Shown here piece after piece: positions 19,393 through 52,335 of a stretch of 61,899 nucleotides of DNA. Position 1 is the first letter of the stretch; each line of letters begins with the position of its first letter. This stretch comes from Candidatus Parcubacteria bacterium. GTDB lineage: Bacteria > Patescibacteriota > Minisyncoccia > Phycocordibacterales > JBAYGS01. The notes under the pieces were generated by a model that did no database searches, was not told where the DNA came from, and saw only the letters and a program-made list of their open reading frames with translations. The stretch lies in assembly GCA_039795895.1 (NCBI GenBank), contig JBDKKW010000003.1, forward strand, positions 1 to 61,899. The letters run 5' to 3'. Made by a program: the position numbers and the translations under genes.

Positions 19393-19425
19393 CAAAATAA
19401 ATATTACCTAGGGTGATTTTATTTT

Positions 19426-19633
19426 GCGGTAGGAAAAACTGCTGGAGAGCAGTTGTGCGCGAGATTCGAAGCCTGATTGAGTATTTTCTTAAGCTCTTTT
19501 TAAGAGCACAAAGAAAATCCAATCAGGGTACTGAAACTGTAAGTTTCGAAACTCTCGCTCCTTCCGCCTTGCACAAGAGAAAGCGTGTAAGGAGTAATTT
19601 CCTTCAAGGGTTCAAATCCCTTACCTTCCGCCA
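19426..19633 (+). ncRNA. Candidate structured RNA ending in a tRNA-like T-arm, acceptor 3' strand and encoded CCA (identity unknown)
   Basis: 3' end AAGGG-TTCAAAT-CCCTT ACCTTCC G CCA (19606-19633). 5' GCGGTAGG (19426-19433) is complementary to CCTTCCGC (19624-19631) with one mismatch. There are several internal hairpins (e.g. AACTGCT-GGAG-AGCAGTT at 19437-19454). Confidence 0.4.
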
Positions 19634-34147: not shown

Positions 34148-34151
34148 GATT

Positions 34152-34505
34152 TCTGGGTAACGATAAGCCGAATTCTGTACCCAGCACTATTACAGTGCTG
34201 GGCGATAGTCATTTGTCTGGGCCATATGTTGCCACATAGCTCTGGCGACTCTCCGCATATTCTTGCGAATATTTGGCACGGTCTTGCACGTAGGTAAGGA
34301 TTTGGCCGTTGCAACCCCGATATTACTATCGGGACTCACCCCGTGAAGGGTGCCTCAATCTTTTCAGATTGAAGCGTCTCTGTTCGCACCTCTAGGATTG
34401 CTCCTGACGGGCGTTACCCGCTACCATCCTCCGCACTTTGTGTGCGGACGTGTTCGGACTTTCCTCCCGGATTCCCGAAGAAACCCGAGTAACTATCTAT
34501 TACCC
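34152..34505 (-). ncRNA. rnpB: RNase P RNA (bacterial type)
   Basis: The minus strand reads GGGAGGAAAGTCCGAAC (CR-I, 34455-34471 region) and ACAGAATTCGGCTTATCG (CR-V, ~34162-34179). P1 candidate is GGGTAAT / GTTACCC. The ends are approximate. Confidence 0.85.
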
Positions 34506-34511
34506 TCAATT

Positions 34512-44143: not shown

Positions 44144-44214
44144 GCGAGTGTAGTATAGTGGTAGTACTGGTGCTTCCCAAGCATCGGGCGCGGGTCCGAT
44201 TCCCGCCACTCGCA
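44144..44214 (+). tRNA. tRNA-Gly (anticodon CCC), T-loop TCCGATT
   Basis: Acceptor GCGAGTG/CACTCGC, D-arm GTAT-AGTGGTA-GTAC, anticodon arm GGTGC-TTCCCAA-GCATC, T-arm GCGGG-TCCGATT-CCCGC, discriminator A. Confidence 0.8.
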
Positions 44215-44371
44215 CCGAAGTATTGAGCAGAGCGAAATCACTTTGGGGAGTGAGGAAGCAAACTGCTTTGCTTCCGGCGGGAAGCGGAAGGCTTTTCTAT
44301 ATTTCGTCCGCGAAATGAGAAAAGCACCTGACTATGTAGTAGTCGATTCCCGCCACTCGCACCGAAGTATT
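44197..44371 (+). repeat. 28-nt perfect direct repeat of the tRNA-Gly 3' end flanking a 119-nt structured insert
   Basis: CGATTCCCGCCACTCGCACCGAAGTATT occurs at 44197-44224 and again at 44344-44371. Confidence 0.9.
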
Positions 44372-44400
44372 AAGTTATTTATATTAGTATATCTTTATTT

Positions 44401-45537
44401 ATGAAAATCCTTATTGTTGGAGCCGGGATCGGAGGTTTAACCCTTGCAGCGTTTCTTAAAGAATCTTCTATCGAGTACGATATTGTCGAAAAAGCAAATA
44501 ATTGGAACACGCAGGGATTCTCGATTGGATTGTGGAATAATGGTAGACATATTTTAGCAAAACTCGGTATTCTTGATCGATTGGAAAAAGAGGGCACGCA
44601 CATCAAGCGCTACCAAGTCCGTAACGGCAAGGGGGATCTCATTCGTGAGTATGATTTTTTTAAATTGTATGCCAAATACGGCCTGAGCTATACCCAGATC
44701 AACCGAGCTTTCCTGCACAGTTGGTTACTTGAACTTGTCGGTAAGGAAAATATTCAGCTTGGAGTGCAGGTTAATTCCCTGAAAGATGTTGGGCACGGGG
44801 TTGAGGTTGTTTTAAGTAATGGTCAGACGCATACTTATGATCTTGTGGTCGGCGCAGATGGTATCCACTCGAAGATCCGCGGTATGATTTTTGGTAGTGA
44901 ACTTGAGAAATTCGACAACTGGCGAGTTTGGTATGCTTGGGTTGATAATCAATTTAAAGATGAGGCTACTGTCACTGAATATGTCGAGCCGGGCGAATTC
45001 ATTGGTATTTTTGATTCTTGTGGTAAAACACTTGCCGTTCTCATTGCCCCTGTCGAACACACTGTTTGGGATGATGTAAAAGGACGACTTGGACGTTTGA
45101 GTGAGACATTTAAGCATGAGGTTAGACTGGATGGTTTTTTGAAGGGTTTGAAAGATGAGGATGTTATGCCCACAGATCTTAGTCGTGTTACACTCAAAAA
45201 ATTTGTGAAGGGTAGAGTAGTGCTCGCTGGAGATGCTGCACATGGTTTTGAGCCGAATGCTGGTCTCGGCGCCTCAATGGCTATGGAGGATGGTTACGTG
45301 CTTGCTGCTGAACTCATGAAAGTCTCAGGTACCTATACGATCAAAAAGGCTATTGATCGCTATCAGGATCTTAGAAGGAAGCGGGTGAAGGTGGCTCGTT
45401 CATCGACCAGTAGAATGCGGTCGTGGTCTTTCATTGGTCCAAGATGGCTCAGGAAGACTGTGGACTTTTTCCTTCCTTTTGTTCCACAGCCTCTTTTTAC
45501 TAGCCAGTATCTGAAGTTGATGAAGGAGGAGATTTAG
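44401..45537 (+). CDS. FAD-dependent monooxygenase (UbiH/aromatic-ring hydroxylase family)
   Basis: MKILIVGAGIGGL dinucleotide-binding motif and GDAAHGFEPNAGLGASMAMEDG. Confidence 0.8.
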   Translation: MKILIVGAGIGGLTLAAFLKESSIEYDIVEKANNWNTQGFSIGLWNNGRHILAKLGILDRLEKEGTHIKRYQVRNGKGDLIREYDFFKLYAKYGLSYTQINRAFLHSWLLELVGKENIQLGVQVNSLKDVGHGVEVVLSNGQTHTYDLVVGADGIHSKIRGMIFGSELEKFDNWRVWYAWVDNQFKDEATVTEYVEPGEFIGIFDSCGKTLAVLIAPVEHTVWDDVKGRLGRLSETFKHEVRLDGFLKGLKDEDVMPTDLSRVTLKKFVKGRVVLAGDAAHGFEPNAGLGASMAMEDGYVLAAELMKVSGTYTIKKAIDRYQDLRRKRVKVARSSTSRMRSWSFIGPRWLRKTVDFFLPFVPQPLFTSQYLKLMKEEI

Positions 45538-45981: not shown

Positions 45982-46053
45982 GCCCTCGTAGTTCAACAGA
46001 TAGAACCGGCCCGTCCTAAGGGTCTAATGTCAGTGCAACTCTGGCCGAGGGCA
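45982..46053 (+). tRNA. Atypical tRNA-Arg (anticodon CCT) or tRNA-like gene
   Basis: Perfect acceptor GCCCTCG/CGAGGGC, D-arm GTTC-AACAGATA-GAAC (no GG), anticodon arm GGCCC-GTCCTAA-GGGTC, T-arm GTCAG-TGCAACT-CTGGC (no T-Psi-C consensus). Confidence 0.5.
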
Positions 46054-46177
46054 CAAATTTAGAAAGTAAATTTGGATGGACAGAATCGGAATTATATTCT
46101 ATGCTGTTAGCGGAATTCGATTTTGAACCATGGTGGTTCAAGTAAGTACATTTTTAAACTTAAACTGGAGGTATCCA

Positions 46178-47075: not shown

Positions 47076-47359
47076 CAAAATACAAAATCCGCCGATGAGG
47101 CGGATTTTGTATTTTGTGCTGGGAAGCGAGCAAACTACTTTGCTCGCGACCCAGGTTCGAAAAGCGGAGCGATGTTTCGCTAGCAAGCGAAACCGCGAGC
47201 TGGGGTCGAGAAAAACAGGAGCGACGGCGACTGTTTATTCGTGACCGATCCGGTCGTACTCGACCACCTGGGTCCCAGCTTCGTTTCGAGGTACCGAGGA
47301 GCGAGTGAGATCTTGGGTCCCAGCACAAAATAACACCGCCTTGGCGGTGTTATTTTGTG
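47064..47359 (+). repeat. Triplicated tRNA-Phe 3' end with structured inserts and two related hairpins
   Basis: TGGGTCCCAGCACAAAATA occurs at 47064-47082 and 47314-47332. ACCTGGGTCCCAGC occurs at 47061-47074 and 47266-47279. There is a 26-bp perfect palindrome (47068-47093 / 47099-47124) and a second hairpin at 47324-47359. Confidence 0.9.
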
Positions 47360-52189: not shown

Positions 52190-52335
52190 GGGTTTTCGGC
52201 AGAAGAGGATTAGGTCACGAATATTTTGTTCGCCGTCGCTCACAAAATTTCTTGACCTCGACTCGCCGGTTTTTCTTGCTAGAAAAACATGACTCCGTCT
52301 TTCAAATCCTCACAAAAGCTTCGCTTTTTTACCGG

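Follow-up and report, generated by a model that had tools for sequence, protein, structure and literature searches.

Integration into tRNA genes is known from its scars: a complete tRNA gene accompanied by a displaced, partial copy of its 3' end is the textbook signature, and the known scars of this kind flank elements of 9-23 kb (PMC9897764). The modules described here resemble such attL/attR scars, and CIMEs, in having an intact tRNA on one side and a displaced 3' copy on the other, in their tandem accretion and in containing no internal integrase. They differ in being 100-250 nt long instead of kilobases, in carrying no gene remnants and in having cores that form covarying single-strand structures, each with a target-complementary strand. 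Among the characteristics of CIMEs and att scars, direct repeats of tRNA 3' sequence were found at both ends; an integrase, gene remnants and full-length relatives were not.

Two other kinds of element share some of these properties. MITEs are small, gene-less, family-like, strain-polymorphic and presumably moved in trans, as are the modules; however, the modules have no terminal inverted repeats, they show a variable duplication of 14-28 nt of tRNA sequence, and they are strictly linked to tRNA 3' ends. Casposons make duplications of 14-15 bp at tRNA 3' ends, but the modules contain neither Cas1 nor any ORF, have no terminal inverted repeats and are flanked by a repeat of variable length.

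The window, which is the whole stretch of 61,899 nucleotides that was analysed, covers housekeeping genes and comes from a groundwater or freshwater patescibacterium; among named genomes, 'Patescibacteria group bacterium H41-bin135_1' is the closest. The local gene order DivIC, tRNA-Gly, glutaredoxin, tRNA-Arg, two small ORFs and tRNA-Phe is kept in relatives. The 28-mer CGATTCCCGCCACTCGCACCGAAGTATT occurs exactly twice in the window, at 44197-44224 and 44344-44371, and had no match in 100 shuffles. Between the two copies, directly 3' of tRNA-Gly(CCC), lies an insert of 119 nt that is single copy within the window. The following features were assigned to the locus:

44144 to 44214, plus strand: intact tRNA-Gly(CCC) with the 'type A' sequence, CCA not encoded (ARAGORN; Rfam tRNA, 62.7 bits).
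44197 to 44224, plus strand: left 28-nt copy of the direct repeat (exact-repeat search, shuffles), running from CGATT in the T loop through the 3' strands of the T stem and the acceptor stem to the discriminator and 10 nt of trailer.
44215 to 44246, plus strand: trailer hairpin in which CCGAAGT pairs with ACTTTGG (MFE fold), the positional counterpart of the terminator hairpin in the Phe and Ser modules.
44246 to 44252, plus strand: acceptor-like 5' strand GGGAGTG, pairing at six of seven positions with CACTCGC of the second copy (fold, alignment).
44254 to 44275, plus strand: hp1, a 9-bp hairpin, GGAAGCAAA-CTGC-TTTGCTTCC, at the acceptor/T-stem junction, where it replaces the D and anticodon arms (fold).
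44276 to 44286, plus strand: T-stem 5'-like strand GGCGGGAAGCG, inside which GGCGGGAA is located (inverted repeat; alifold pairs 40-47 with 107-114).
44290 to 44325, plus strand: hp2, a long A/U-rich hairpin (fold, comparison with relatives L009 and L012).
44329 to 44345, plus strand: hp3, a 7-bp hairpin with a GUA loop, TGACTAT-GTA-GTAGTCG (alignment, fold).
44344 to 44371, plus strand: right 28-nt copy of the direct repeat, the 3' strand of the closing stems of a predicted pseudo-tRNA (repeat search, relatives).

The first-pass annotation of this DNA had described a perfect 28-nt duplication of the tRNA-Gly 3' end around a structured insert, had named three features of the insert (GGGAGTG, a 9-bp hairpin and a segment able to pair with the second repeat) and had proposed that insert and second repeat fold as an expanded tRNA-like molecule. 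The duplication was confirmed at the coordinates listed and all three features were located. The insert plus second repeat folds at -59.3 kcal/mol, compared with -39.7 ± 3.7 kcal/mol for shuffles (z = -5.3), and the predicted fold is a tRNA-like junction: compared with a cloverleaf, it has a single hairpin instead of the D and anticodon arms, and an enlarged T loop that is engaged in pairing. Only 44144-44214 was called as a tRNA by ARAGORN and Rfam, with no second tRNA at the insert. What had been overlooked is that the tRNA-matching segments of the insert complement the tRNA's own 3' end; the trailer hairpin, and three more tRNAs of the window with the same kind of module, had also been missed.

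The strand GGCGGGAAGCG is the reverse complement of the T-stem 3' strand together with T-loop nucleotides, and lengthens the T-like helix formed with the second copy. The hp1 of the Gly module is unchanged in L009/L020 and in L012, and the tRNA-Phe module has a near-identical hairpin, GCAAACTACTTTGC. Within hp2, L009 differs by one compensatory pair (44301 A>G with 44316 T>C), and L012 shows two changes that disrupt pairing. The ends of the insert, GAGCAGAG... and ...GTAGTAGT, are not inverted repeats of each other. The latter, which lies immediately left of the second copy, does not look like the T-stem 5' half.

The possibility that the repeat is an assembly artefact was excluded, because independent assemblies and relatives show the same arrangement. 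A contig of 151 nt from an independent run is identical across 44233-44383, the diverged relatives L009/L020 and L012 have the same tRNA, insert and second copy in other assemblies, and further runs contain diverged versions of the three.

The same series of parts is found at tRNA-Phe, tRNA-Ser and tRNA-Val: a hairpin of trailer or terminator type, a complement of the tRNA's own acceptor 3' strand, hp1, a complement of its T-stem 3' strand and T loop, one to three further hairpins, and a direct copy of the tRNA 3' end, which is degenerate in the Ser and Val modules. The features concerned are:

19393 to 19568, plus strand: type 1 module at tRNA-Ser(GGA) (alignment, fold).
47076 to 47279, plus strand: type 2 module at tRNA-Phe (fold, alignment, covariance model R1).
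47280 to 47332, plus strand: 34-nt right-end remnant of type 3 (GAGGTACCGAGGAGCGAGTGAGAT) with a third tRNA-Phe 3'-end copy and the native trailer (alignment).
52198 to 52333, minus strand: type 2 module at tRNA-Val(GAC) (model R1, 92.6 bits).

In the Ser module the terminator hairpin is followed by the acceptor-like strand GCGGTAGG, hp1, GCGCGAGATTCGAA, hp2, hp3 and the degenerate direct copy, and the 5' strand fits this degenerate copy better than it fits the true tRNA. At tRNA-Phe, the tRNA 3' end with its terminator and the left part of the module form a perfect palindrome with arms of 38 nt, interrupted only by hp1 at the acceptor/T-stem junction; on the right side the conserved core is followed by the direct copy CCTGGGTCCCAGC. 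Between the window and L009 the palindrome shows 100% conservation, except that its 5-nt loop is replaced. The type 3 right end (GAGGTAYCGAGGRGCGAGYGA) also separates the second copy of the tRNA-Phe 3' end from the third, which indicates that this tRNA has received two stacked insertions. Tandem stacking was also observed at tRNA-Ser of L032, where the tRNA 3' end occurs three times, along with two modules.

Copies of each tRNA's own 3' end were evaluated by aligning its last 24 nt plus 8 nt of trailer locally against the downstream 400 nt and comparing the result with shuffles. For Ser, Gly and Phe both the inverted and the direct copy scored above every shuffle; for Val this was the case for the inverted copy only. 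Inverted and direct copies were present behind four of the five tRNAs of the window, and z exceeded 4.6 for nearly all copies, the lower values being those of the tRNA-Val direct copy (2.1) and of the inverted copy at tRNA-Ser of L028 (2.8). Among relatives, the pattern was found in L009 (Phe, Gly), L012 (Gly), L021 (Gly, Arg), L022 (Arg) and L028 (Ser). None of the six tRNAs of L027 showed it, and no inverted copy was found downstream of any of the viral control tRNAs.

When the modules were folded alone, the apparent inverted copy reaching into the trailer resolved into two structures, a hairpin directly behind the tRNA and a pseudo-tRNA. In the Phe, Ser and Val modules the hairpin is a good predicted intrinsic terminator; the Phe hairpin is homologous to the native terminator found after the last copy. 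In the closing stems of the pseudo-tRNA the direct copy supplies the 3' strand. Because strands in the module's left part are complementary to this copy, the tRNA-sense strand is predicted to form an acceptor-like stem and a lengthened T-like stem; a short hairpin stands where a tRNA has its D and anticodon arms, and the T loop is replaced by one to three conserved hairpins. The strand beside the T-like stem is not a copy of the T loop but its reverse complement (Gly-A, Gly-B' and Arg), so that the modules are not mere decayed tandem duplicates of the tRNA. All copies measure 120-250 nt, none contains a gene fragment, and the direct repeats vary in length (14, 16, 20 and 28 nt).

Three core types were distinguished. 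Type 1 comprises the Gly insert of the window and the Ser modules, and consists of hp1, the long A/U-rich hp2 and hp3; the 3' arm of hp3 enters the first T-loop bases of the second copy, and the hairpin is common to the Gly and Ser modules with compensatory changes (TGACTAT-GTA-GTAGTCG in Gly, TGAAACT-GTA-AGTTTCG in Ser). Type 2 was found at tRNA-Phe and tRNA-Val in the window, at tRNA-Phe in L009, at tRNA-Val in L028 and beside tRNA-Ser in L030-L032. Its core of about 93 nt has the order GGAG..AUG, hairpin, CCGCGAG, GGUCGAG, a hairpin with the loop GAGCGACGGCGA, and AUUCGUGACC. The covariance model R1, built for this core, detected tRNA-linked copies only, at 23-110 bits, in 209 kb scanned. 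Type 3 occurs at tRNA-Gly and tRNA-Arg in L021 and at tRNA-Arg in L022. The two L021 copies share only 87% identity, which argues that they were not recently derived from one another. A unification of types 1 and 2 was considered and not adopted: R1 misses the Gly insert, and the likeness, unproven, is one seen by eye (GGCGGG..., an A/U hairpin, ...CCTGAC).

Covariation, which had been suggested as a means of judging the structure, proved strong across types 2 and 3 and the Ser modules of type 1. In the type 2 core, 97.5% of the cells in 30 pairs are paired and 12 pairs are compensatory, compared with 5.4 ± 1.5 in shuffles (none of 500 reached as many); with the partners slid, only 33-49% of cells are paired. 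In type 3, compensatory changes affect 13 of 53 pairs, and a 10-bp closing stem differs in each copy and pairs in all. Among the type 1 modules the corresponding numbers are 15 of 41 pairs for Ser and 3 of 51 for Gly, where covariation is thin, the acceptor-like stem being among the three. Between the Phe modules of the window and L009 a whole stem has been exchanged (AAAACAG/CTGTTT to CCTTGCC/GGCAAG) with pairing and loop kept, and a hairpin changes from GGTCG/CGACC to GGCCG/CGGCC. In general, stems covary, and loops and joining segments are conserved.

For all three alignments of diverged module copies (A3-A5), the predicted fold of the sense strand is more stable than that of the antisense strand by 6.6-9.6 kcal/mol, and the sense strand has 28 G.U pairs compared with 6. 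Because the stems covary and both fold energy and G.U pairs favour the tRNA-sense strand, selection appears to act on one strand, and from these comparisons the functional form is probably a single strand in the direction of the tRNA, most simply RNA.

Relatives of the window were recovered through the DivIC protein. In L014-L018 and L019 the tRNA-Gly site is empty, with the trailer and the glutaredoxin promoter directly 3' of the tRNA. In the window, L009/L020 and L012 a homologous trailer comes after the second copy, and the difference between empty and filled sites is exactly the insert plus the duplicated 3' part of the tRNA. The insert is 87-90% identical between the window and relatives, whereas the adjacent DivIC gene is 69-75% identical. 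The duplication is not an isolated scar.

The tRNA-Gly of L012 is of 'type B', with the acceptor GCGGGTA/TACCCGC and a repeat of 20 nt. The acceptor-like strand tracks the tRNA, since the L012 insert has GCGGGTA at the position of GGGAGTG in the window, the pairs being GCGGGTA/TACCCGC and GGGAGTG/CACTCGC, respectively. L020 and L012 are 96% identical across 7 kb, except for a block of about 190 nt that contains the tRNA type and the left part of the module; in L020 this block joins a type A tRNA and left insert part to a type B second copy. As judged from this alignment, the L020 Gly locus is a recombinant mosaic.

A comparable contrast was observed at tRNA-Arg, which is empty in the window, L009, L012, L014-L017, L019 and L020 and filled in L021 and L022. 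L021 and L014 are 96-97% identical around tRNA-Arg, where L021 has a module of 138 nt and a perfect 28-nt duplication; a second module in L021 lies at tRNA-Gly, with a duplication of 14 nt. Different core types occur at one and the same tRNA in different genomes.

Neither the sequence of the insert nor its surroundings identified a known family or a mobility gene. The insert has no ORF, no terminal inverted repeats and no fixed short target duplication; no recombinase was detected among the approximately 20 window proteins scanned, and the neighbours of the tRNAs are housekeeping genes. No integrase, recombinase, reverse transcriptase or other mobility gene was found inside or beside any copy, and viral, metagenome and genome scans returned no autonomous relative. 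Viral contigs were scanned for the repeat, the insert and the core motifs of types 2 and 3; the only matches were unrelated tRNA-Leu 3' ends and one chance match in a high-GC contig, and no phage attP was found. Rfam searches at gathering and permissive thresholds gave only tRNAs, RNase P, whose RNA gene lies within the window, and noise. For the modules there was no Rfam match at E <= 5, including group I or other introns and ribozymes, and tRNA-Gly is uninterrupted.

The 119-nt insert with its second repeat is best read as a type 1 copy of a family of gene-less miniature insertion modules that occupy tRNA 3' ends in a clade of Patescibacteria. Literature searches found no account of such modules; the family is apparently undescribed and possibly represents a novel type of miniature element that homes to tRNA genes. 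That the modules are non-autonomous mobile elements, homing to cognate tRNA genes by recombination over the shared 3' segment and requiring their RNA fold in cis, is a proposal for which we consider the balance to be even. A module would enter its cognate tRNA gene by recombination across the common tRNA 3' segment, producing a direct repeat of 14-28 nt and leaving a working tRNA with a terminator. The single-stranded fold, most likely of RNA, would be needed in cis, either for mobility or for staying harmless through termination and tRNA-like processing, and another enzyme would presumably move the modules in trans. Mobility is favoured by the exact empty and filled sites, the recurrence of modules, the shared cores at different tRNAs, the selected structure and the strand bias, and also by the conservation of the insert, tandem stacking, abundance in metagenomes and the L020/L012 mosaicism. 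On the other side, exact loss between direct repeats could give the same presence and absence, and ordinary homologous recombination between conspecifics would explain the polymorphism without a dedicated mechanism. A DNA element spread by recombination needs no selection on an RNA fold, for which a host ncRNA fits equally well; the scans found no mobility enzyme or autonomous copy, and none of the runs containing the locus was an RNA run; covariation in the Gly module is thin, and the two type 3 copies of L021 have only the limited identity given above. An extended form of the proposal, in which the modules are the first bacterial gene-less, tRNA-shaped mobile elements to act as RNA, with two guide-like segments per tRNA (T arm and acceptor 3' strand) in a conserved scaffold and RNA-guided or reverse-transcription homing through a helper enzyme, seems unlikely to us.

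Three other explanations were weighed. A less probable one is that the modules are host-functional pseudo-tRNA ncRNAs, that is, tRNA-derived structured RNAs made by read-through from the tRNA promoter that mimic the acceptor/T-stem helix of the cognate tRNA; possible roles are as a punctuation site for processing by RNase P/RNase Z, or as a decoy or regulator for factors that recognise acceptor arms. The sense-strand fold with its enriched G.U pairs, the strong covariation with conserved loops, conservation above that of neighbouring genes and the RNase P RNA encoded in the window all agree with it, as does the better fit of the Ser 5' strand to the degenerate copy, which is expected if an internal helix is maintained. 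However, the modules are dispensable, as exact empty sites in close relatives show, one tRNA can bear any of three unrelated core types, depending on the genome, modules stack in tandem, a good intrinsic terminator separates the tRNA from the module at Phe, Ser and Val, and the downstream gene is not consistent. Another explanation, which we regard as improbable, takes the modules for passive scars of an integrase: a phage or integrative element would have entered the tRNA gene and lost its interior, leaving attL, attR and short arms. The complete tRNA with a displaced partial 3' copy has the appearance of such a scar, partial copies form tandem arrays at integration hot spots, and the repeat starts in the T loop, which Williams is said to have identified in 2002 as a crossover sublocation of tRNA-gene integration. 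But the copies are uniformly small and without gene fragments, the cited scars enclose many kilobases, no integrase is nearby, and the same conserved cores occur at different tRNAs with compensatory changes in their stems. Arm sites in double-stranded DNA give no reason for stem covariation or strand-asymmetric G.U pairs, and no core site resembling the T-stem 5' strand was apparent directly left of the second copy.

These observations bear on the two readings that the first-pass annotation had left side by side, a remnant after deletion of an integrase-dependent element and a miniature tRNA-targeting element or ncRNA. The remnant is set aside as the main reading by an insert more conserved than the neighbouring genes, by membership in a family with covarying hairpins and by the lack of any integrase or gene remnant; nor did the viral, metagenome and genome scans find the insert at the ends of an intact element or phage. 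The miniature element or ncRNA gains from the clean empty (L014, L019) and filled (L009, L012) tRNA-Gly sites seen in relatives, whose comparison had been recommended, and from the acceptor-like strand covarying with the tRNA. Local tandem duplication followed by decay, making the insert a degenerate second tRNA-Gly, has very little probability left. It would account for an acceptor-like strand that is the tRNA's own 5' acceptor sequence with one change and for the native trailer or terminator that follows the module as it would a second gene copy, but the strand by the T-like stem complements the T loop instead of copying it, the gain in L021 relative to L014 is clean, and hp1 and the cores are common to modules at different tRNAs, a sharing by which this explanation is already largely refuted.

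The proposed mobile modules can further be compared with systems in which a folded strand matters. In the integration of IMEX and CTX phages, and in integron attC sites, an inverted copy of the target lies near one junction and a direct copy at the far end, a one-strand fold rebuilds a duplex that mimics the target, no own recombinase is carried and tandem stacking occurs, as in the modules. The modules differ in that their target is the tRNA 3' end and not dif or attI, in being too small for phages or cassettes, in G.U pairs that suggest RNA over ssDNA, and in having no recognised Xer-type site. The folded strand rebuilding the target duplex, which characterises IMEX, was found here, and an Xer/dif target and a replicon or phage genome were not. 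Eukaryotic tRNA-derived SINEs are likewise non-autonomous, with a tRNA-like folded body (here predicted) and a family-specific conserved core, and their truncated copies keep the 3' end, as the right end is kept in the type 3 remnant at tRNA-Phe and in the tRNA-Gly-A insert of L022. In contrast to SINEs, the modules are bacterial, are confined to the cognate tRNA gene, have no A/T tail and have no known partner reverse transcriptase.

Permuted two-piece tmRNA and YrlA-type mimics share with the modules the layout T arm, acceptor 3' strand, loop and acceptor 5' strand, and in both the acceptor/T helix is mimicked with the rest replaced. The Gly module scored 14.7 bits with the tmRNA_permuted model (RF04321), far from the threshold of 47, ARAGORN found no tmRNA, and there is no tag reading frame. 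In addition, the T arm is that of a genuine tRNA-Gly, and modules occur at many tRNAs. The likeness to tmRNA_permuted therefore appears to be only superficial, an analogy of layout.

If the modules are mobile, they would represent a new class of minimal tRNA-gene parasites in the streamlined genomes of the Candidate Phyla Radiation, with their specificity written as target-complementary strands within a conserved scaffold. Such a layout is otherwise found in programmable systems, namely the exon-binding sites of group II introns, bridge RNAs and folded attachment sites. Should the modules be host RNAs, they would constitute a new family of tRNA mimics, each linked to a particular tRNA. Either way, many 'partial tRNA' calls and long tRNA-adjacent intergenic regions in Patescibacteria MAGs would be accounted for, and the modules supply covariance models for a census and a testable substrate (an RNA of about 125 nt, a substrate of RNase P/Z, and circular or excised forms).

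In metagenome contigs, core segments were found at 5-10 times the depth of unique flanks and continued into many different flanks, indicating that the module family is abundant in these communities. An exact-pattern scan of metagenome contigs with GCTTCCGGCGGGAANCGGAAGGC gave six matches, five of them chance matches in high-GC coding DNA; the sole true relative was L009.

Two further interpretations were rejected. A primer-binding site complementary to the mature tRNA 3' end does not fit, because the complementarity enters the genomic trailer and not CCA. Archaeal non-canonical tRNA introns include T-loop insertions that share sequence between different tRNAs, and a type 2 copy was found within the T loop of the decayed tRNA-Gly-A of L022; bacteria are not known to have the splicing endonuclease. 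An intron in the T loop was rejected for the window because the tRNA, unlike that of the archaeal cases, is intact and uninterrupted and because Ser and Val have degenerate second copies. The tRNA-Gly-A of L022 alone looks intron-like, and it is a pseudogene. In L021, a separate and unrelated MITE-like insertion was observed near glutaredoxin.

The architecture of the 119-nt insert behind tRNA-Gly, a folded pseudo-tRNA that carries no gene and is closed by a direct copy of the tRNA 3' end, recurs as a module behind other tRNA genes of the window:

19393-19568, + strand: module behind tRNA-Ser
47076-47332, + strand: module behind tRNA-Phe
52198-52333, - strand: module behind tRNA-Val

No module of this architecture follows tRNA-Arg (45982-46054).

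In metagenome runs X1, X3 and X5 the conserved core segments 47158-47205 and 44256-44304 were covered by contigs at 5-10x the depth of their flanks, and numerous contigs ran on from these segments into unrelated sequence; therefore, freshwater and groundwater metagenomes hold many more members of the family.

Among relatives, the type 2 core, one of the three module core types, was found in unusual settings. In L030 (11090-11410; the same in L031) a tRNA-Ser(GGA), whose 11-nt leader CCTGTACGAGG is exactly complementary to its trailer CCTCGTACAGG, separates a second tRNA-Ser-like gene into a 5' and a 3' piece, and this split gene carries a type 2 core within its D loop: the arrangement is one of nested tRNA fragments. 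In L028 (6196-6333, - strand) a type 2 core is positioned behind the terminator of tRNA-Val and is bounded by a 15-nt direct repeat, TGCGAGGCGGAGCGA. Because this repeat is not tRNA sequence, the type 2 core can apparently occur outside a tRNA-derived frame.

The tRNA-Gly locus itself varies. L022 (1380-1620; the same in L023) contains a tandem pair of tRNA-Gly(CCC) genes: a copy of the window's type (type A), with a type 2 core inside the T loop and a decayed acceptor 3' strand, and, starting 7 nt after it, an intact copy with the acceptor GCGGGTA/TACCCGC (type B). The two types were also found swapped between the 96%-identical genomes L020 and L012. Position 55, at which U (pseudouridine) is nearly universal among tRNAs, is a C in the T loop of the window's tRNA-Gly (TCCGATT, 44194-44200), and the T loop of type B in relatives is identical.

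Immediately 3' of the second repeat lies a FAD-dependent monooxygenase gene (44401-45537). This gene is missing in all relatives examined, in which the glutaredoxin gene comes next after the tRNA-Gly locus; it appears to have been inserted specifically in the window, immediately behind the region of the glutaredoxin promoter. L021 carries an insertion of approximately 120 nt (1020-1145) that separates this promoter from the glutaredoxin gene and is missing in L014 (96% identical). Its 15-bp terminal inverted repeats (AACTTCTGTAATTAG) are perfect, and it has the appearance of an ordinary MITE.

Judged by their appearance, the modules may be substrates of RNase P, and only this makes the following gene relevant here:

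window 34148-34508, - strand: bacterial RNase P RNA class A (115 bits)

The GCGAAGC motif, the sequence of a mini-hairpin of unusual stability, and GAGCGAAGCGA-like strings were repeatedly observed inside or beside modules:

window 52314-52328, - strand
L009, about 2640-2650
L021, about 945-957 and 1735-1745

The palindrome of the Phe module is perfectly conserved. Its 5-nt loop reads GATGA in the window (47094-47098) and TTATC in L009, the latter matching the reverse complement of the former at four of five bases. This is reminiscent of the flip/flop isomers of hairpins, and the near-inversion may be due to chance (p ~0.016).
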